DNA of 39,868 nt from an uncultured Ignavibacteriales bacterium (GCA_964611355.1 CAZSYD010000018.1:1-39868), one strand, 5' to 3'. Positions 1 through 27,227 are shown, numbered from the stretch's first letter. Notes: generated from the letters alone by a model not told the origin. Program-made: numbers and translations.

Positions 1-107
1 GATAGTTGTATCTATTAATTATACAAGACGGAATTGGTCTTATTTTGAATTAAATAACGTAGTACGTTTTCTTGTTTCGCCAATATAAAACTTACGGCAA
101 GTATTCC

Positions 108-293
108 TTACGGGCAGCAGGGCGTCGGGCCAATGGAGAAAACGTAATTATTGATACGGACTACATCGCCGACATTGATGCTGCCGTCGCAATTGGCATC
201 GCCGGCTTCGGCCGGGTCGGGCGGCGGGCCGCTTTTGAAGATATAATTGATAATATGGACCGTGTCGCCAATGTTTATATTTCCGTCGCCGTT
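108..293 (-). pseudogene. Truncated C-terminal dockerin-type domain remnant without a start codon
   Basis: Manual minus-strand translation gives NGDGNINIGDTVHIINYIFKSGPPPDPAEAGDANCDGSINVGDVVRINNYVFSIGPTPCCP*, two Ca-binding dockerin repeats like those ending ORFs 8189..9409 and 24801..27227. An in-frame TAA (294-296) lies directly upstream. Confidence 0.85.
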
Positions 294-324
294 TTATTAC
301 TGTCGGATGTGATTGATTACCGGA
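280..324. repeat. 45-bp imperfect direct repeat, copy 1
   Basis: tttccgtcgccgttttattactgtcggatgtgattgattaccgga; 39/45 identical to 1714..1758, with an exact 16-bp core tgtcggatgtgattga. Confidence 0.9.
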
Positions 325-362
325 TGGGGTAAAAGTAGAGATATGTCGGTAATTATAACCAA

Positions 363-1502
363 CTAGTAGTGGTTTGCAGATCGACGGGCGTTTCGCTTTC
401 GTGGTTCCCCGGGGATATCCGGATATGGGGCATTTCTAATACCGCGTGGGTTTAACTGCAAGGTTTGCTGCCGGGTCATTGTGGTATGGTAAAATCCATC
501 CTTCTCCATCGGGACAAGCCTGCCAAAGAGTTTTTTTGCGTATTCGTAATCATCCGGGTCACGGAGATCCATGACAATCTCAATTTCCTTATGCCTGATT
601 TTCTCCCATTGCTCGCCTCCTCTCTCGCTGATTTCATCCATTGTCATCGACTCGGTGCGATGAAACTTGTATTCGCCCTTGGAACGGAACCATGTCTGGC
701 CATCGACATAAATCGTCTGAGCGTCATATTTCGTCAACGGCGCCCATTCCATTATCTCCTTTCTTTTCTGATCTGTCACAGAACCGATTTTCATGATTTT
801 GACCGAATCGTTATAATTTGTACTATCAGCGGGCTGGAACAGGAGTTCACCTCTGAAACGTATCAATGGTTCGCCATCAACAAAGATTAATTGCCCGGGA
901 TATCGAGTAAGCGGTTTTCGTTCCAGTATTTGTTTTTTCTGCAAGTCAGTGGGCGTGTGAGTCTTACCGCCCTCTACCGTATCAACATAGCCGCGTTCCG
1001 TCGTATAGACGACAGGCTTCCCATAGCCGGGTAAAAGGCTATCGGGTATCCCCACATCCGGCGGACGTGGTGACGGTGGCTTTGGTTTTCCTCGAAACAC
1101 CTTAACGGTATCACCTGTTGTAACGAAATAAAGATAAGTCCTACCAACAAAATCGCTTTTTCGGTGAACCTCAATAATAATACCGGAGGTATCATCCGGC
1201 GAAATAATTACAGCCAATTTATGGTCTATAGTGTCGCCATAATTCACGGGTATCCCCCAGGACTTCTTGCCTTCGTATTTAAGCCTTCCAATTGTAGATA
1301 CTGTAATGTTCAGACTATCCCATTGCCAATATGATTTAATTCTAAATGTTAAATCTACCAACCCAGTATTTATCGGCCCCTGAGGAGTATTTATCGATAG
1401 ACCAATGAGCCCAACATCCCTTGATATCTGTCCAAAACAAGGTTTTGCCAAAACCAAAGTAACAAGAGAATAACCTACCAACAGTTTTCTGATTGTACTC
1501 AT
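363..1502 (-). CDS. Hypothetical secreted protein with two internal ~45-aa repeats
   Basis: 379-aa ORF; GGAGG RBS upstream on the minus strand; signal-peptide-like N-terminus; Pro-rich linker; repeats TDLQKKQILERKPLTRYPGQLIFVDG and TDQKRKEIMEWAPLTKYDAQTIYVDG. Confidence 0.8.
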   Translation of the reverse strand: MSTIRKLLVGYSLVTLVLAKPCFGQISRDVGLIGLSINTPQGPINTGLVDLTFRIKSYWQWDSLNITVSTIGRLKYEGKKSWGIPVNYGDTIDHKLAVIISPDDTSGIIIEVHRKSDFVGRTYLYFVTTGDTVKVFRGKPKPPSPRPPDVGIPDSLLPGYGKPVVYTTERGYVDTVEGGKTHTPTDLQKKQILERKPLTRYPGQLIFVDGEPLIRFRGELLFQPADSTNYNDSVKIMKIGSVTDQKRKEIMEWAPLTKYDAQTIYVDGQTWFRSKGEYKFHRTESMTMDEISERGGEQWEKIRHKEIEIVMDLRDPDDYEYAKKLFGRLVPMEKDGFYHTTMTRQQTLQLNPRGIRNAPYPDIPGEPRKRNARRSANHY

Positions 1503-1713
1503 GATTGCCTCCTTCGATATACTACAATAAACTTTTGTTTTATTTATACCTATGGCACTCCATCTTTGACCTTTTTCTCGGAATACGCCGGTCTGGTAAT
1601 TGAGGGGTTGAAGAGAACCGGCAATGTCGACATTAAATAAAACATCTTACAAGAAAATGTCAAGCGATATCTCTATTTTATGACGAAATAATTGTCAATT
1701 CGTGCACTGACAG

Positions 1714-1758
1714 TTTCCGTCACCGTTTTACTTATGTCGGATGTGATTGACTACAGGA
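1714..1758. repeat. 45-bp imperfect direct repeat, copy 2
   Basis: tttccgtcaccgttttacttatgtcggatgtgattgactacagga; matches 280..324. Confidence 0.9.
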
Positions 1759-1836
1759 CATTTCCAGTTTCCCCTTGACTTCTACGACCTCAATTCAATT
1801 ATTCCCCCATAACTTGACTTAGGCAATTCGGTTTTT

Positions 1837-1962
1837 ATGCCCGCTGTTGAAGTAAAAGATTTAGCCAAACGGTTCGGTGCTGCATCAACCGCGTATTTTA
1901 CGGCTGATCAGCCTCCGGTCAAATGTCCGTTCAAACACCAGACTCTTGACGGAGAGGCCTGA
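1837..1962 (+). pseudogene. Chimeric ccmA N-terminus / ccmE C-terminus remnant (41 aa)
   Basis: Translates as MPAVEVKDLAKRFGAASTAYFTADQPPVKCPFKHQTLDGEA*. The start resembles an ABC ATPase N-terminus and the end resembles the CcmE F-x-A-x-x-x-x-x-KCPSKY motif. It stops 3 nt before ccmF. Confidence 0.6.
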
Positions 1963-1965
1963 TCG

Positions 1966-4155
1966 GTGAACTGGGGCGCGCTTCTGATAACGCTGGCTTT
2001 TGCCGGTATATTGACAAGCACGATCTGTTTTTTATTGGCCGCACTGGGGTATTCCCGGTTTTTCTCCCTGGCGCGCAGGAGCTACGCTTGCTTTGCGGCT
2101 TTTGTCAGCCTGGCCTGTCTGCTTCTGTTTTACCTCTTCATCACCGGCGATTATTCCTATAAATATGTCTTTGACCATTCCTCGTCCGACCTGCCTTTAT
2201 TTTATCTGATTTCGGCATTCTGGGTCGGGCAGGAAGGTACCTATCTCCTCTGGTTGTTTTTTCTGACCCTGATGGGGTATTTCATCATTAACCGGGGTCG
2301 GGAATATACCAGCCATGCGATGTTTTTTTACGGACTGATCAATCTTTTTTTCTGCACGATCCTGCTGGCGCTTTCGCCGTTTGAAAAACTGCCTGTGCCG
2401 CAGGCGGAGGGAGCCGGTCTTAATCCATTGTTGCAGGACCCCTGGATGGTCGTCCACCCGCCTGTAATATTTTTAGGTTATGCGGCGGTTGCCATACCCT
2501 GCGTCATCGCCATGGCGGCTCTGGCAAGAAACAAGTATGACAACTGGTCAAAAATATCATTCGGCCCGGTTGTGTTCGCAGCGCTGGCATTGGGGGCCGG
2601 GAATATCATGGGAGCGTTCTGGGCTTACAAGACGCTCGGGTGGGGCGGTTATTGGTCCTGGGACCCGGTTGAAAATTCGTCCCTTATCCCGTGGCTGACT
2701 TCGCTGGCGTTGATTCACGGCCTTCTCATTGAACGGCGCAGCAGCAGTCTCAGGAGGACCAATCTTTTTTTGGCGTTGTTCACCTTTTTGCTTGTTATCT
2801 ACGGAACTTTCCTGACACGCTCAGGCGTCCTGGTCAAATTTTCGGTACACAGCTTTGTTGATCTGGGAATCAACGTTTATCTGGTTGGCTTCATGATCGG
2901 GTTTGCGCTTCTGTCGCTGGTTCTCTATGTTCTTCGCATCGGCAGAATCAAAGTTCCCTCGGCAAATCTCGACGTTACCTCTCAGGAATTCTCGCTTGTT
3001 GTTTCGGTGTGGCTGTTGCTTTTAATTGCGGTGGTGGTTCTGACCGGAACGTCGTGGCCGCTTATCACCGCGTTTTTTGGCAGTCAGGGCGCAGCCGATA
3101 GGGATATGTACACCCGGCTGATTTTCCCCCTTGCGATAGTCATCTGTCTTTTCCTCGGCTTTTCGCCGTTTATGCTCTGGAGGGGAGGCGAGTCGGGACG
3201 GCTGATAAAGAAAGCGGTTATACCAATTATAGCGGCTTTGGCGATTACAATAGTCTCCGTATTAATGGGAGTAAAGTCCTTTTCCTACTTGCTTTTTATT
3301 TTCTCGGCCGCTTTCGCGTTTTTCTCTAACATACTGACGCTTGCGAGATACCTCCCCGATAGAATAAAACTGTCCGGACCCCAGGTAGCACATCTCGGAT
3401 TGGCCATGATGCTTATCGGCATACTCGTTTCTTCGGCCTATTCCACCAGTCGTATGTTGGTGATCGATCATGGCCGTGCCGGTTGGGCGTACGGTTTTGA
3501 GATTACCTATAAGGGAATGACCGGTGAAATTACCACGCCGGATAATGAGATTCTCCTTGATATCAAAGACGGCAACGGCGGGTACGAAGCCCGGCCGAAA
3601 ATGTTCCGGTCTCGCCGAATGGGAGGTTTCATGAAGAAACCGTATATTAAGCGGTATTTGTTTTATGACATCTACCTGGCCCCGGAGCAGTTTATTGACC
3701 TTTCGCCGGAGAACGGGGTGAAAATCGTGCGCGGCGATACTATCCGGCTTGGCGAATTTCATATAACTTTTACGGGTTTCGATCAGGCTGAGCATGATTT
3801 GAATTCATCGATGAAGTTCGCCGCGGTATTGGAAGTGACTAACGGCGCCGGCCGCACGGAAACAATAACGCCGGCCCTTGTCTTTGAGCCGGGTAAGAAT
3901 TTCATTCATTTCGACGTTCCGATAATGAGCGGTTACGATTCGTTTCAGGTTCGGTTGGAGAGGGTTTTTGCCGATGAGGGGGCTATCATGTTGTCAGTTG
4001 AGGGATTAACGCCAAAGTTGCCGACTGACCAGCTTGTTCTGGAAATCTCCAAAAAACCGGCCATGAATCTGCTCTGGGGGGGTGCGATTGTGCTCCTTTT
4101 GGGCGGTTTTCTCTCATTTCGTAACAGGTGGAAAATAAGCCGCACGGGGCCATAG
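1966..4155 (+). CDS. ccmF: Cytochrome c biogenesis heme lyase CcmF/NrfE family
   Basis: Multi-TM protein with GLNPLLQ, HPP, WGGYWSWDPVENSS (WWD domain), TFLTRSG, SVHSF and AHLG motifs. Confidence 0.93.
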   Translation: MNWGALLITLAFAGILTSTICFLLAALGYSRFFSLARRSYACFAAFVSLACLLLFYLFITGDYSYKYVFDHSSSDLPLFYLISAFWVGQEGTYLLWLFFLTLMGYFIINRGREYTSHAMFFYGLINLFFCTILLALSPFEKLPVPQAEGAGLNPLLQDPWMVVHPPVIFLGYAAVAIPCVIAMAALARNKYDNWSKISFGPVVFAALALGAGNIMGAFWAYKTLGWGGYWSWDPVENSSLIPWLTSLALIHGLLIERRSSSLRRTNLFLALFTFLLVIYGTFLTRSGVLVKFSVHSFVDLGINVYLVGFMIGFALLSLVLYVLRIGRIKVPSANLDVTSQEFSLVVSVWLLLLIAVVVLTGTSWPLITAFFGSQGAADRDMYTRLIFPLAIVICLFLGFSPFMLWRGGESGRLIKKAVIPIIAALAITIVSVLMGVKSFSYLLFIFSAAFAFFSNILTLARYLPDRIKLSGPQVAHLGLAMMLIGILVSSAYSTSRMLVIDHGRAGWAYGFEITYKGMTGEITTPDNEILLDIKDGNGGYEARPKMFRSRRMGGFMKKPYIKRYLFYDIYLAPEQFIDLSPENGVKIVRGDTIRLGEFHITFTGFDQAEHDLNSSMKFAAVLEVTNGAGRTETITPALVFEPGKNFIHFDVPIMSGYDSFQVRLERVFADEGAIMLSVEGLTPKLPTDQLVLEISKKPAMNLLWGGAIVLLLGGFLSFRNRWKISRTGP

Positions 4156-8188: not shown

Positions 8189-9409
8189 ATGTTTGGAAGA
8201 GTTATCGCGGGAATTATGGCTGTCCTGTTAATTCCGGCGATTGTTACGGCTGCCGACCCGACAGCCTGGGTGATTAACACCACGGCCGAAACCTTGTCAA
8301 AGATCGACCTTAACTCGCAGGTAGTCACCAACGATGTCCTTACTCTTGGATCGGATATCGATTGTTACCCGAACCAGATAGCTGTCCGTGATACCCTGGC
8401 TTATGTTCTCAATTCCGGCACCGATGAAATACAGATAATCGATATCAACAACGAGACGACCGTCGGCTGGATCAACTTTGATCCCGGCAGCAATCCGTAC
8501 TGGATGGCTTTTCTCAATAATCAGTATCTCTATGTAACTCTGCTGACCGACAACAGCCTGGCCAAGGTTGATTTGAGCACTAATCAGATTGTCAAAATTA
8601 CCGAGGTGGGTAAATCGCCGGAGGGAGTCATCATATATAATTACAAGGCTTATATTGCTATTACTGCCTACGATTTCGTTACCTGGACCTGGGGTCAGGG
8701 TGAGGTGGTTGTCTATGATACCGAAACCGATGAAGTCGTTGACGTGGAGATTTTAACTTCGACTAATCCGCAGTTTCTTGATATTGACCGCGAGGGAATA
8801 ATCCACTTGGTTTGTACCGGCAATTACTGGGATGTGCCCGGAGTTATCTTTTTAATAGATCCTGCCATCAACGCCGCTTTTGATATTGTCGAGGTCGGCG
8901 GCACGCCCGGCCATATCTCTATTGCCCCTAATGACATCGCCTGGCTGGCGGCGGGCGGATGGGTTGCCGACGGCGAAGTTTATATGTACAATGCCGTCAC
9001 CCATGAAATCTACCACGACGCGGCCGACCCGCTTCTTGTCGATTCAGGGGCCGCCTCGGTGGCCGTTTACCAGGATTCGACCGCCTTTGTGTTGACTTTT
9101 AACGATATAGTTTCCCGCCACGACGGTTCGGGGGCGGAGATTAACGCTTATAGCCTGGGCGACGGCCCGGTCAATCTTGATTTTAGCTATATCCCCGGCG
9201 ACGCCAACGGCGACTGGAACGTCAATCTGGGCGACGCCGTTTACCTGTTCAACCATATTTTCCATTCCGGCCCGAAACCGGTATTTCCGGCCTGGCGAGC
9301 TGATGCCAACGCCGACGGCAATATCAATATCGGTGATGCAGTTTACCTGGTAAATCATATTTTTAATAATGGCGACAGGCCGAAACTCGGGATGGCGTGG
9401 CTCAGGTAA
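8189..9409 (+). CDS. Secreted YncE/BtuG-like beta-propeller with C-terminal dockerin domain
   Basis: GGAGG RBS; signal peptide; YVTN-like repeats (AYVLNSG, LYVTLL, VGKSPEG); C-terminal GDANGDWNVNLGDAVYL...ADANADGNINIGDAVYLVNHIF. Confidence 0.8.
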   Translation: MFGRVIAGIMAVLLIPAIVTAADPTAWVINTTAETLSKIDLNSQVVTNDVLTLGSDIDCYPNQIAVRDTLAYVLNSGTDEIQIIDINNETTVGWINFDPGSNPYWMAFLNNQYLYVTLLTDNSLAKVDLSTNQIVKITEVGKSPEGVIIYNYKAYIAITAYDFVTWTWGQGEVVVYDTETDEVVDVEILTSTNPQFLDIDREGIIHLVCTGNYWDVPGVIFLIDPAINAAFDIVEVGGTPGHISIAPNDIAWLAAGGWVADGEVYMYNAVTHEIYHDAADPLLVDSGAASVAVYQDSTAFVLTFNDIVSRHDGSGAEINAYSLGDGPVNLDFSYIPGDANGDWNVNLGDAVYLFNHIFHSGPKPVFPAWRADANADGNINIGDAVYLVNHIFNNGDRPKLGMAWLR

Positions 9410-24800: not shown

Positions 24801-27227
24801 ATGAAGCTCACCATTGCATTAGCAGGCATTTTGCTTTTTACTTTTGGTGCAGCCATGGCCCTGGACGATAGGATGGATATTGGCGCGACAGTTGATGGTG
24901 TCCAGATCACGGAAAACGATACTGTCTGGGTGGATGAAGCCGCGACCTTTGATATCTATTTCGAAAACGCGGATACACTGGGCGGCTATTCAGCGGGATT
25001 TATTATCTGGTCCGATGACGGCGCCGACTGGCGGTGGGAAGAGTATTTTCTTGAAGCTGTGTACATCCCGGGAACCTGGCCTCCCGAATTTGATTCCGTT
25101 TATTCCGTCGTTACGGCCATTGAAGGTTCCCGTCAGTATCCCCCGTCGGCGGTTTGGGATCAAGGCGGTTTCCAGATCAGCCTGGCCGACACCAATGGCC
25201 CCCCGTATGATACCATTCTTTTCGGCGGAACCCGCAAAGACCACGGTCTCTATCCCGGCCCACTCGAATTGCAGATGCAAATGCATTTCGTGGCGACTGA
25301 ACCGACCACCGGCCTGATTTCGACCATATGTATCGATAGCGCCAAGGTCGGCGAGGCGGGAGATTTTATTTTCATCGATATCGCCGGACGGACCTCTCCG
25401 CCGACGGCTCTCTGGCCCGAAGGCGGCCGCTGCTATCCGGTCAAGAAAGAAGGTGCGGCAAGCCCACCGGTAATCATTCTTGATCCGCCCCAGATCGGCG
25501 TCACCGGTATAATAGGCACCTATACGCCGTCGGCGGAGATCAGCGTCACCAACGGCGGAATAGGAACTATGAACTGGTCGGTGACCAACAGCGAGGCGTG
25601 GCTGACTCCCGATCCGCCGGGCGGCGTGGATGACGGCATTATCGATCTGGTGTTCGATATAACCGGTTTGGACGAGGGAGTCTATTACGACACCGTGGTG
25701 GTTTCGTCGCCGGAGGCGATTAACAGCCCGCAGAAGGTGCCGGTTACGCTGACTATTATCGCGCTGCCGCCCGAAATTGAGTACGAACCTTCGGGATTCT
25801 CCGCTTCGGCCATACAGGGGGGAGCCAATCCTGATGATCGCTATCTGCATATCTGGTCCGACGTACCGGGAAGCGAACTTGAGTGGACCGTTTCGAATTC
25901 ATCGACATGGCTGACGTTGTGGCCCGCCACCGGGCTTTCTCATGATTCCACCAAACTGGAATTTGATATCAGCGGCCTGGGCTATGGCGTTTATTACGAT
26001 ACTATTGTTATAACCGATCCCGAAGCGACCAATAGTCCTCAGCACGTTCCCGTAACGCTGCAGATTGTCTCCGATCTGCCGGTGCTTGCTTTTGATCCCG
26101 ATACCCTCCACGTTGTTGTTCTCGTCGAAACCAGCGAACCGCCCGCTGTGGTTACGGTTTATAATTCCGGCGAAGGCGTGATGACTTTTGAAGCAAGTGA
26201 GGGCTGCAGTTGGATAACCGGTATTAATCCACAATCCGGTACGGCGCCGCAGGACGTATCTATTTCATTCAAGACGTACCCGCTTCACGTGGGCGATTAC
26301 TATTGCCCGGTAACGTTTACTTCTCCCGAAGCGGTCAATTCGCCGCAGGATTTGATCGTTCATCTGCACGTGACCGACGATCCGGCCGAAATATCGCTTG
26401 TCCCCAGTTCGGTCGAGATGACTTATTACGAATGCTGGCAGGGGCCTGATTACATACCTGCCGGCAAGATGTTCCAAATTTTCAATCAGGGCTCGGATCC
26501 GATGCATTGGTGGCTGACGCATACTTCGGACTGGCTGATTTTGAACCCGACATCCGGGTTTAACAACCAGATAGTATCCGTGTACGTACTTAACCTGGAT
26601 GAGATACCCGTTGGCACGTATGTCGATACGGTTGTGGTTTATTCCAACGAAGCGATCAACAGTCCCGAGTCGCTTCTGGTGACGCTGGATATAATCCCTG
26701 GAGATCAAGACCCTGAATTGGCCGTTACCGAAACCGGAATGGATATTCCCGCTCAGGAGGTATTCGGAGCCGGAGCAGCCCTGGTTCCGCTTACCGAGGT
26801 ATATAACCTGCACCCGGGTTGTATGGATTACCGGGTTGAAGAGGATATTCCCTGGCTTAAGATCATCGATACGCTGGGTTCGGCTCCGGAAAATCTTAAG
26901 GCGGTGGTGGAGATCGGCAGTTACACTTACGGAACTTATCCGGATTCGTTCTTTGTTCATTCGCCTACGGCGATAAATTCACCGATCAGGGTGGACGTGA
27001 ACCTGCTTGTCTGGCGATTGCACGGCGATGCTAACTGGACCAATAGCGTCAACATTGGCGATGTAGTTTACCTGACCAATTTTATTTATTATAACGGGCC
27101 CGGGCCGATACCGGAATATATTGTCGGCGACTGCAATGGTGACCAGGCTGTCAACGTTGGCGATATAGTGTACCTGCTCAACTACATCTTCTACAATGGG
27201 CCCGAACCGCTCGGCAATCCGAAATGA
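24801..27227 (+). CDS. Surface protein with N-terminal beta domain, about five BACON/Ig-like repeats and C-terminal dockerin
   Basis: GGAGGTG RBS; signal peptide; repeats W-x-V...WL...G-x-Y-x-DT...A-x-NSP-x-x-V-x-V-x-L; C-terminal GDANWTNSVNIGDVVYL...GDCNGDQAVNVGDIVYLLNYIF. Confidence 0.85.
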   Translation: MKLTIALAGILLFTFGAAMALDDRMDIGATVDGVQITENDTVWVDEAATFDIYFENADTLGGYSAGFIIWSDDGADWRWEEYFLEAVYIPGTWPPEFDSVYSVVTAIEGSRQYPPSAVWDQGGFQISLADTNGPPYDTILFGGTRKDHGLYPGPLELQMQMHFVATEPTTGLISTICIDSAKVGEAGDFIFIDIAGRTSPPTALWPEGGRCYPVKKEGAASPPVIILDPPQIGVTGIIGTYTPSAEISVTNGGIGTMNWSVTNSEAWLTPDPPGGVDDGIIDLVFDITGLDEGVYYDTVVVSSPEAINSPQKVPVTLTIIALPPEIEYEPSGFSASAIQGGANPDDRYLHIWSDVPGSELEWTVSNSSTWLTLWPATGLSHDSTKLEFDISGLGYGVYYDTIVITDPEATNSPQHVPVTLQIVSDLPVLAFDPDTLHVVVLVETSEPPAVVTVYNSGEGVMTFEASEGCSWITGINPQSGTAPQDVSISFKTYPLHVGDYYCPVTFTSPEAVNSPQDLIVHLHVTDDPAEISLVPSSVEMTYYECWQGPDYIPAGKMFQIFNQGSDPMHWWLTHTSDWLILNPTSGFNNQIVSVYVLNLDEIPVGTYVDTVVVYSNEAINSPESLLVTLDIIPGDQDPELAVTETGMDIPAQEVFGAGAALVPLTEVYNLHPGCMDYRVEEDIPWLKIIDTLGSAPENLKAVVEIGSYTYGTYPDSFFVHSPTAINSPIRVDVNLLVWRLHGDANWTNSVNIGDVVYLTNFIYYNGPGPIPEYIVGDCNGDQAVNVGDIVYLLNYIFYNGPEPLGNPK

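Follow-up and report, generated by a model that had tools for sequence, protein, structure and literature searches.

Two 45-nt direct repeats that bracket a secreted-protein gene, one of them fused to a start-less dockerin coding sequence, most likely record ordinary genome decay and not a gene-shuffling system. In the reading that we favour, to which we assign a probability of about 55%, the repeats would be the homologous leader ends of two tandem paralogues, the second and longer of which was removed by a deletion between short stretches of microhomology. A first-pass annotation of the same DNA had viewed the repeats as possible recombination sites of a cassette system and had offered, as an alternative, a repeated leader element at which 14-bp microhomology had led to the deletion of a gene; the comparative evidence presented here favours that alternative, and the cassette part of the interpretation does not stand.

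Repeats and dockerin junction

The window, that is, the whole stretch of 39,868 nt that was analysed, is an entire contig (C18) of a metagenome-assembled genome of 2.57 Mb in 110 contigs, designated G000. The features of interest lie towards its first end (Table 1).

Table 1. Features at the beginning of the window, with positions counted from its first nucleotide.
Feature	Position	Strand	Description
Dockerin stub	108..293	-	61 codons plus TAA stop; without start codon
Repeat copy 1	280..324	-	begins 38 nt past the ORF-A stop
ORF-A, 379 aa	363..1502	-	short, N-domain-only family member; no Pfam family
Promoter-like module TTTCGTCA-N17-TTGACA	1658..1688	-	25 nt downstream of copy 2
Repeat copy 2	1714..1758	-	far-upstream part of the leader of ORF 363-1502
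ccmA-ccmE fusion ORF, 41 codons	1837..1962	+	first ~14 codons of ccmA plus last ~20 codons of ccmE
Intact ccmF-like gene	1966..4155	+	Cytochrom_C_asm + CcmF_C; synteny anchor with relatives

A repeat search returned a single direct-repeat family with two co-oriented copies that enclose ORF-A, in agreement with the first-pass annotation. Each copy is 45 nt long, 39 of the 45 positions are identical (87%), the spacing is 1434 nt, and the exact 16-mer common to both is TGTCGGATGTGATTGA. Read on the minus strand, both copies terminate in the 14-mer AACGGYGACGGAAA, which corresponds to codons of the dockerin calcium loop, as had also been noticed, and in both a TAA stands immediately 5' of the AAC. 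Shuffling of window positions 1-2400 never produced 39/45 identities in 100 attempts (best shuffle, 29/45), and 4 of 150 real 2.4-kb pieces of G000 reached that value, indicating that such local repeats are uncommon, although not unique. When one copy was compared with the whole of G000 by blastn-short, the other copy was recovered with an E value of 1.7e-5, and there was no further match longer than 14 nt. Likewise, a scan of the genome for the 16-mer, allowing up to two mismatches, returned the two exact places and one unrelated place on contig C11, which has two mismatches and no wider similarity to the 45-mer.

The similarity between the copies could not be extended past the 45 nt, because the scores obtained for the upstream flanks were reached by 402 of 1000 shuffles, and those for the downstream flanks by 139 of 1000 (57 of 2000 when the first 90/70 nt were considered); the weak match between the downstream flanks overlaps the motif TTTCGTCA of the family promoter described below. 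A promoter and terminator scan placed no site within either copy, and the sole match to Rfam 15 in positions 1-2400 was to a snoRNA model, located away from the repeats and well below threshold (19.4 bits against a gathering score of 60, E 0.32).

Copy 1 runs on in frame into the dockerin stub, so that its final 14 nt double as the first codons of the stub. These codons match Pfam Dockerin_1 (PF00404) with an E value of 9.5e-10 and 39 bits, from profile positions 5 to 56 of 57, passing the gathering cut-off of 22.9 bits. They are preceded by CAG TAA TAA, leaving no open codons upstream, and the D of the G-D-A signature, the first residue of the first calcium loop, is missing. The junction of copy 1 with a start-less dockerin that lacks its G-D-A, already pointed out in the first pass, is therefore confirmed. 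The other complete dockerin modules of G000, 36 in all, are each preceded by at least 45 open codons (median 709), which makes the stub the sole truncated module in this genome, and G-D-A precedes 31 of them. As it has no start codon, no upstream carrier domains and an incomplete first calcium loop, the stub is not part of a translated protein. It shares with type I dockerins (PF00404) the two-repeat organization, calcium-loop and helix segments both being present, and its identity to the 36 other modules of G000 is 44-64%; it carries H13 and R46 at two positions occupied by Y or F in 33 of the 36 paralogues. Judging from its sequence, the replacement of these conserved aromatic residues fits decay, as would be expected of a module under relaxed constraint. 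We found no literature combining Zixibacteria with dockerin.

The junction lies 280 nt from the end of the contig, and we thus considered whether it could be a chimeric join made by the assembler at a repeated dockerin sequence. The stub is placed at the very end of a whole contig in a genome of 110 contigs, and one sequencing run (X3) shows loose ends and alternative continuations at positions 51-55; nevertheless, we judge an artefact to be extremely improbable. Separately assembled Logan contigs from three runs bridge the junction (279-294) without differences, extending over positions 1-355 in run X1, 1-588 in X2 and 26-473 in X3. Additionally, the first 55 bases of C18 are the reverse complement of the start of contig C27, and two metagenome contigs (JGI), 99.9% identical to G000 and covering window positions -70 to 2278 and -1877 to 1043, cross the junction and continue into C27, confirming the C27-C18 join, both repeat copies and the fusion of copy 1 to the dockerin. 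The left flank encodes a DXP reductoisomerase, an M50 peptidase, two S26 signal peptidases and a small conserved protein, and this gene order agrees with that of relatives, which also argues against a chimera. Copy 2 is spanned by contigs from runs X1 and X3, and a contig from X2 stops inside it, at position 1743; in X3 and X4, some bins were uncovered. Because the source sample may be among these runs and contigs, not all of them are to be taken as independent.

ORF-A and its family in related genomes

The gene between the repeats had been described as an orphan, a label that did not survive wider comparison. ORF-A has a ribosome-binding site, AAGGAGG, at positions 1508-1514, and its N-terminus reads as signal-peptide-like. 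A near-length search with its product identified three distant relatives, 28-30% identical, and a family profile constructed from nine sequences, including ORF-A itself, retrieved 408 cluster representatives at E<=1e-3, 308 at E<=1e-10 and 125 at E<=1e-30. ORF-A aligns with this profile over its full length (E 3.6e-128, for a profile to which it contributed), including the invariant FVTTGD and GEYKFH motifs, and independent matches with P0002-P0004 showed 28-30% identity over 60-99% of the length of ORF-A. It is the only match to the family profile in G000, and it shows no similarity to the genes that occupy the same slot in relatives.

Many family members have 330-400 aa and are thus similar in size to ORF-A. 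Among the best 150 of the 408 matches, 22 have at least 700 aa, 18 of these containing CARDB; four of the 22, of 1180-1207 aa, have a C-terminal Dockerin_1 at E<=1e-3, two of them exceeding the Pfam cut-off. Locus L023 codes for a family protein of 1188 aa in which an N-domain matching ORF-A residues 7-377 (E 4e-25) is followed by CARDB, a transthyretin-like match and, finally, a dockerin 52% identical to the stub. By eye, an HExxH motif is present in the L023 protein and in the corresponding ORF from locus L022. The middle part of the L023 protein did not match anywhere in G000. This uncharacterised secreted N-domain family is widespread, and its tandem arrays combine short forms with long forms that have a dockerin tail.

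The family is present in 10 of the 14 genomes of the GTDB family to which G000 belongs (G000 counted), often in tandem, and a short form followed by a long form was seen in relatives. The array in L024, the same contig as G005:C57 and from the same GTDB family as G000, contains two short forms, of 375 and 386 aa, and then a long form, the three proteins showing 24-43% mutual identity. Tandem paralogues also occur in L022, in L026, where the copies are 76% identical, and in further relatives from the family. The L024 leaders contain a 57-nt island, 79% identical, which in its second occurrence lies 47 nt past a stop codon and 275 nt ahead of the next start. In turn, a 61-nt repeat, 80% identical, lies on either side of a short paralogue in L022, with a dockerin gene just upstream. 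The geometry of the G000 repeats is alike, since copy 1 begins 38 nt past a stop codon and copy 2 ends 211 nt before a start codon.

A module consisting of TTTCGTCA-N18-TTGACA is present in all three L024 leaders, and its counterpart in G000 follows copy 2. The 33 nt from TTTCGTCA to TTGACAT in G000 are identical at 27 positions to the leader of the long paralogue of L024/G005, a score reached by none of 500 shuffles, indicating that copy 2, 212-256 nt before the ORF-A start codon, belongs to a native family leader. G000 has the module in only two places, the second being C11:42208, on the minus strand. Some leaders of the secreted N-domain family thus have a promoter module in common; in its strict form, it was found in just 2 of 17 further family leaders. 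The G000 locus differs from the L024/G005 arrays in that a single gene of the presumed array survives, and in that the repeated piece lies upstream of the promoter module and not on it.

Similarity between the 45-mer itself and the leaders of relatives was limited. The p3 leader of L024 shares ACATCCGAC with it, at a score reached by 36-37 of 1000 shuffles, and the match was not significant for the p1 and p2 leaders. When five loci containing ORF-A homologues were searched for the 45-mer, the best score was 11, as compared with a median of 12 in 60 random 9-kb pieces.

Origin of the repeats

Deletions between short direct repeats can take place without RecA. We infer that ORF-A, a short, N-domain-only paralogue, was once followed downstream by a long paralogue, here called ORF-B, of about 1200 aa, which would have comprised an N-domain, CARDB, transthyretin-like and HExxH regions and a C-terminal dockerin. 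A deletion of roughly 3.7 kb would have begun just past ...GACGGAAA, a stretch of the ORF-B leader, and ended at the matching AACGGCGACGGAAA, where the ORF-B dockerin starts, taking the promoter, the N-domain and the middle of ORF-B. Its joint would fall inside a microhomology of 13-14 nt, as predicted when slippage or template switching takes place independently of RecA between short direct repeats, a type of deletion to which PMC7145654 and PMC2621351 relate. The remnant would consist of copy 1, as the surviving start of the ORF-B leader, fused to a start-less and decaying dockerin stub, with copy 2 remaining in the working leader of ORF-A. A single deletion of this kind would account for the homology between the copies stopping exactly at GGAAA, for the seamless passage of copy 1 into dockerin codons and for the absence of G-D-A from the stub; an origin of copy 1 in the ORF-B leader would likewise account for its location 38 nt after the ORF-A stop.

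Several lines of evidence support this origin: the family includes long forms of ~1200 aa that end in dockerin; relatives contain tandem arrays and short direct repeats flanking paralogues; ORF-A ends where short paralogues end; copy 2 is located in a native family leader; and the lineage is prone to deletion, as illustrated by ccmA-E and by the small genome, with the constraint on the stub apparently relaxed. As in microhomology-mediated deletions, one copy of a match of 13-14 nt lies exactly at the joint of two otherwise unrelated sequences, the lost segment would amount to a few kb, and a second scar lies 1.5 kb off; here, however, the microhomology is deduced from the paralogous copy 2 (13/14) and not from the true parents. 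A direct match of 13/14 between 300 nt and the next 3.7 kb was obtained in 30% of 300 random samples of G000, and one of 14/14 in 3%, so that the coincidence of such a microhomology is unremarkable.

Conversely, the 45-mer is not clearly conserved in the leaders of relatives, and the strict promoter module was found in only the 2 of 17 further leaders mentioned above, both of which count against an origin from paralogous leaders. The same applies to the reading frame, because ORF-A, copy 1 and the stub share a common frame (from the coordinates, 1434 = 3 x 478), which under this origin must be due to chance (1 in 3), and to the six differences between the copies, four of which affect third codon positions of the dockerin frame and none second positions (manual count; p about 0.1), a lean that hints at a coding past. 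An intact ORF-B was not found at this place in any genome searched. A DNA search of 40 relatives with window positions 1-2400 matched the ccmF and dockerin-coding parts and nothing from 294 to 1950, and the slot between the small conserved gene and ccmA holds unrelated genes in relatives, so that the former existence of ORF-B is deduced and not seen.

The common frame and the third-position lean would be better explained if a single long family gene had lost its middle, leaving ORF-A and the stub as its ends, and if a copy of the resulting 31+14-nt junction had later arisen upstream, through a tandem duplication of which one unit was lost afterwards or through a double template switch that patched the deletion with leader sequence of the same gene. 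Long forms that begin with the N-domain and finish with the dockerin do exist, and the TAA right before the AAC in both copies could mean that the junction between stop and dockerin predates the duplication. We consider this sequence of events possible but rather unlikely. It needs two or three events, as opposed to the one needed by the loss of a separate ORF-B, and no simple one-step mechanism would place a dispersed 45-nt copy 1.4 kb away. Moreover, copy 2 is followed by the family promoter and not by a decayed dockerin, since the dockerin-like similarity past it is not significant (the 139/1000 and 57/2000 shuffles given above) and overlaps TTTCGTCA. Finally, ORF-A ends like the short paralogues, 16 residues past a YPDIP motif (10 residues in the p1 protein of L024), and the following 70 nt are AT-rich, contain three in-frame stops (TAG, TAA, TAA) within 23 codons and look like intergenic DNA. 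For these same reasons, that short paralogues end there and that the 70 nt look intergenic, we rejected a broken gene read through the three stops.

The proposal of a cassette system implies that the 45-mers act as sites of the att or attC type, where a recombinase would insert or shuffle secreted-protein cassettes into dockerin-coding DNA. The arrangement has features in its favour, in that direct repeats with an exact core of 16 nt bracket a single gene with its own promoter, and in that the slot beside ccmA is occupied by different genes in different relatives. Nonetheless, the weight of the evidence makes it very improbable. The first-pass annotation had advised searching the genome and its relatives for further copies and looking left of the window for copies or a recombinase; there are just two copies in the 2.57 Mb of G000, the 45-mer consensus was found, with up to three mismatches, in none of 284 other genomes of the phylum, and an exact scan of metagenome contigs returned two contigs, both from this same locus. 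These counts also separate the pair from REP, MITE and cassette-site elements, classes with more than two copies. Integrase, transposase or resolvase families were represented in none of the 24 other ORFs of the window, in line with the earlier remark that it contains no recombinase, nor in any of the eight ORFs in the 7 kb to its left; the only two matches to Phage_integrase (PF00589) in G000 are on other contigs, C60 and C23.

Nor do the repeats use a recurrent dockerin sequence. The 14-mer AACGGYGACGGAAA occurs in G000 at the two repeat copies only; 11 places lie within one mismatch of it, just one of them in another dockerin, and the 36 other modules open with 36 different 14-mers, indicating that the dockerin motif is conserved here at the protein level only. 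The dockerin-coding motif assumed to be abundant is thus not so at the DNA level. Folding of both copies with 10-nt flanks, on both strands, yielded z-scores of -0.16, -0.33, +0.75 and +0.15 (200 shuffles each), no better than shuffled sequences, and there is therefore no hairpin at the copies. The core sites of attC conform to RYYYAAC and GTTRRRY; by eye, the nearest strings at the ends of the repeats, ATAAAAC and GTTTTAT, fit neither. Joints corresponding to empty sites or excised circles were absent from the Logan contigs of four runs and from the two metagenome contigs, a weak indication because assembled contigs drop rare variants. With only two copies, no empty site in these contigs and no association with dockerins elsewhere, the outcome is the one that had been named beforehand as refuting the cassette proposal.

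The comparison with known systems leads to the same view. As with integron cassettes, a single ORF of about 1.4 kb lies between co-oriented repeats, but the locus lacks an integron integrase, R''/R' core sites and a hairpin formed by an imperfect palindrome, its sites number only two, and the ORF comes with a promoter and a long leader of its own. As with attL and attR, a segment missing from the locus of relatives is flanked by direct repeats that share an exact core of 16 nt; here, however, ORF-A and its leader are all that the segment contains, this single gene belongs to the family and has a native promoter of that family, a recombinase gene is present neither inside the segment nor next to it, and an empty site was not found in the contigs examined. 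We also regard as highly unlikely a variant in which an unlinked or lost recombinase, or template switching at the NGDG-coding start of dockerins, inserts family genes with their promoters before dockerins; should it be true, the locus would show, arrested midway, the shuffling of domains among the secreted proteins of Zixibacteria.

A second deletion and the meaning of the locus

Loss of DNA is also evident next to the repeats. The fusion ORF that precedes the ccmF-like gene starts with a ccmA-like sequence, MPAVEVKDLAKRFG, and ends with a ccmE-like sequence, ADQPPVKCPFKHQTLDGEA; it marks where a second deletion, about 2.4 kb long, removed the genes from ccmA to ccmE. In all seven relatives examined, ccmA, B, C and E lie in front of ccmF. 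A tblastn search of G000 did not find ccmB or ccmE; ccmC matched ccmF alone, and weakly, and ccmA matched generic ABC ATPases only. Contigs from four runs, and also L029, read across the fusion. The family comprises 14 genomes of up to about 5.1 Mb, among which G000, with its 2.57 Mb, is the smallest, one other being listed at a rounded 2.6 Mb. It thus represents a small-genome lineage that lost ccmA-E and kept ccmF.

Together, our results indicate that this locus most likely reflects ordinary genome decay in such a lineage, under which the repeats, as the leaders of paralogues, and the microhomology scar would belong to a kind of event that is already known. Its mechanistic weight is small, since paralogous leaders and microhomology scars are textbook decay, but it conveys a caution, in that what looks like a repeat aimed at a motif conserved in proteins can turn out to be one deletion joint lying beside its paralogue. 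The by-products of the analysis are perhaps more useful: the secreted N-domain family, the promoter module common to some of its leaders and the loss of ccmA-E.

A variable slot beside ccmA

Divergent from ccmA lies a slot bounded by a small conserved gene (window -406 to -29, on contig C27, which adjoins the window's left end), and this slot was compared at loci L016-L019 of relatives. The secreted-protein gene found there, on the minus strand, differs between genera; in G000, the genome containing the window, the slot is occupied by ORF-A (379 aa) and the stub, a start-less 61-codon dockerin remnant. The slot between the small conserved gene and ccmA is a variable spot amid otherwise conserved synteny.

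The N-domain family and its upstream module

The N-domain of ORF-A is secreted and spans about 330 aa; FVTTGD and GEYKFH are its invariant motifs. A profile search gave 408 cluster representatives of this secreted family, which has no Pfam family and is uncharacterised. The domain either makes up a protein by itself or forms the N-terminal part of larger proteins (about 1200 aa), which also contain CARDB, a transthyretin-like part and an HExxH motif and end in a dockerin. Tandem short forms are often followed by a long form.

Some genes of the family are preceded, 100-310 nt upstream, by a promoter-like module, TTTCGTCA-N17/18-TTGACA, and this distance implies long 5' leaders. The module precedes all three paralogues at L024, and a TTCGTC variant was found in 2 of 17 further leaders of the family. 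Across the whole G000 genome it is present at two places only, one in the window and one on contig C11.

At the relatives' locus L022, a 61-nt direct repeat flanks a short paralogue on both sides. One copy comprises the genuine 3' end of the short paralogue (...GGSDSMDEKYR, stop) plus spacer; the other, an orphan version of such a 3' end situated in the spacer behind a dockerin gene, is apparently another remnant of a lost array member.

Locations of the features compared
Feature	Location	Strand	Detail
Slot content	G001, G002, G010	-	768-785-aa protein
Slot content	G003	-	775-aa protein with dockerin at end
Slot content	G000	-	ORF-A and stub
N-domain gene	window 363-1502	-	ORF-A
N-domain gene	L023 3983-7549
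N-domain proteins	P0008, P0015, P0030, P0046
Promoter-like module	window 1658-1688	-	G000
Promoter-like module	C11:42208	-	G000
Promoter-like module	L024 3679-3712, 5051-5084, 6583-6616
Promoter-like module	L022 about 3195-3230
Direct repeat	L022 3409-3469, 4231-4291		61 nt
Dockerin modules (examples)	window 9206-9382, 27033-27212
Dockerin modules (examples)	C48:7555-7737, 8311-8490
ccmA/ccmE fusion ORF	window 1837-1962	+	41 codons
ccmF	window 1966-4155	+	intact

Dockerins, cohesins and contig ends

G000 (2.57 Mb) contains 37 two-repeat dockerin modules, the stub included, and six cohesin-like matches, five of them above Pfam's cut-off. Two dockerin modules on contig C48 lie close to the N-terminus (45-53 codons upstream) and are not C-terminal. 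No paper in the literature library searched mentions 'Zixibacteria' together with 'dockerin'.

The window shares an exact 55-mer with the start of C27 (positions 1-55, reverse complement) and another with the start of contig C50 (39814-39868), and both look like assembly-graph links. In sequencing run X3, two contigs diverge from the window sequence at 51-55, and a second continuation is therefore present in that sample.

Remnants of the ccm genes

In a short ORF of the window, the beginning of ccmA is fused with the last part of ccmE, immediately 5' of an intact ccmF, and ccmA-B-C-E-F are retained at the same place in all seven relatives compared. In tblastn searches of the G000 genome (96% complete), ccmB and ccmE had no match anywhere, and ccmC had none except a weak one on ccmF. 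Accordingly, the half of System I (cytochrome c maturation) that delivers heme appears to have been lost from G000, with ccmF remaining.
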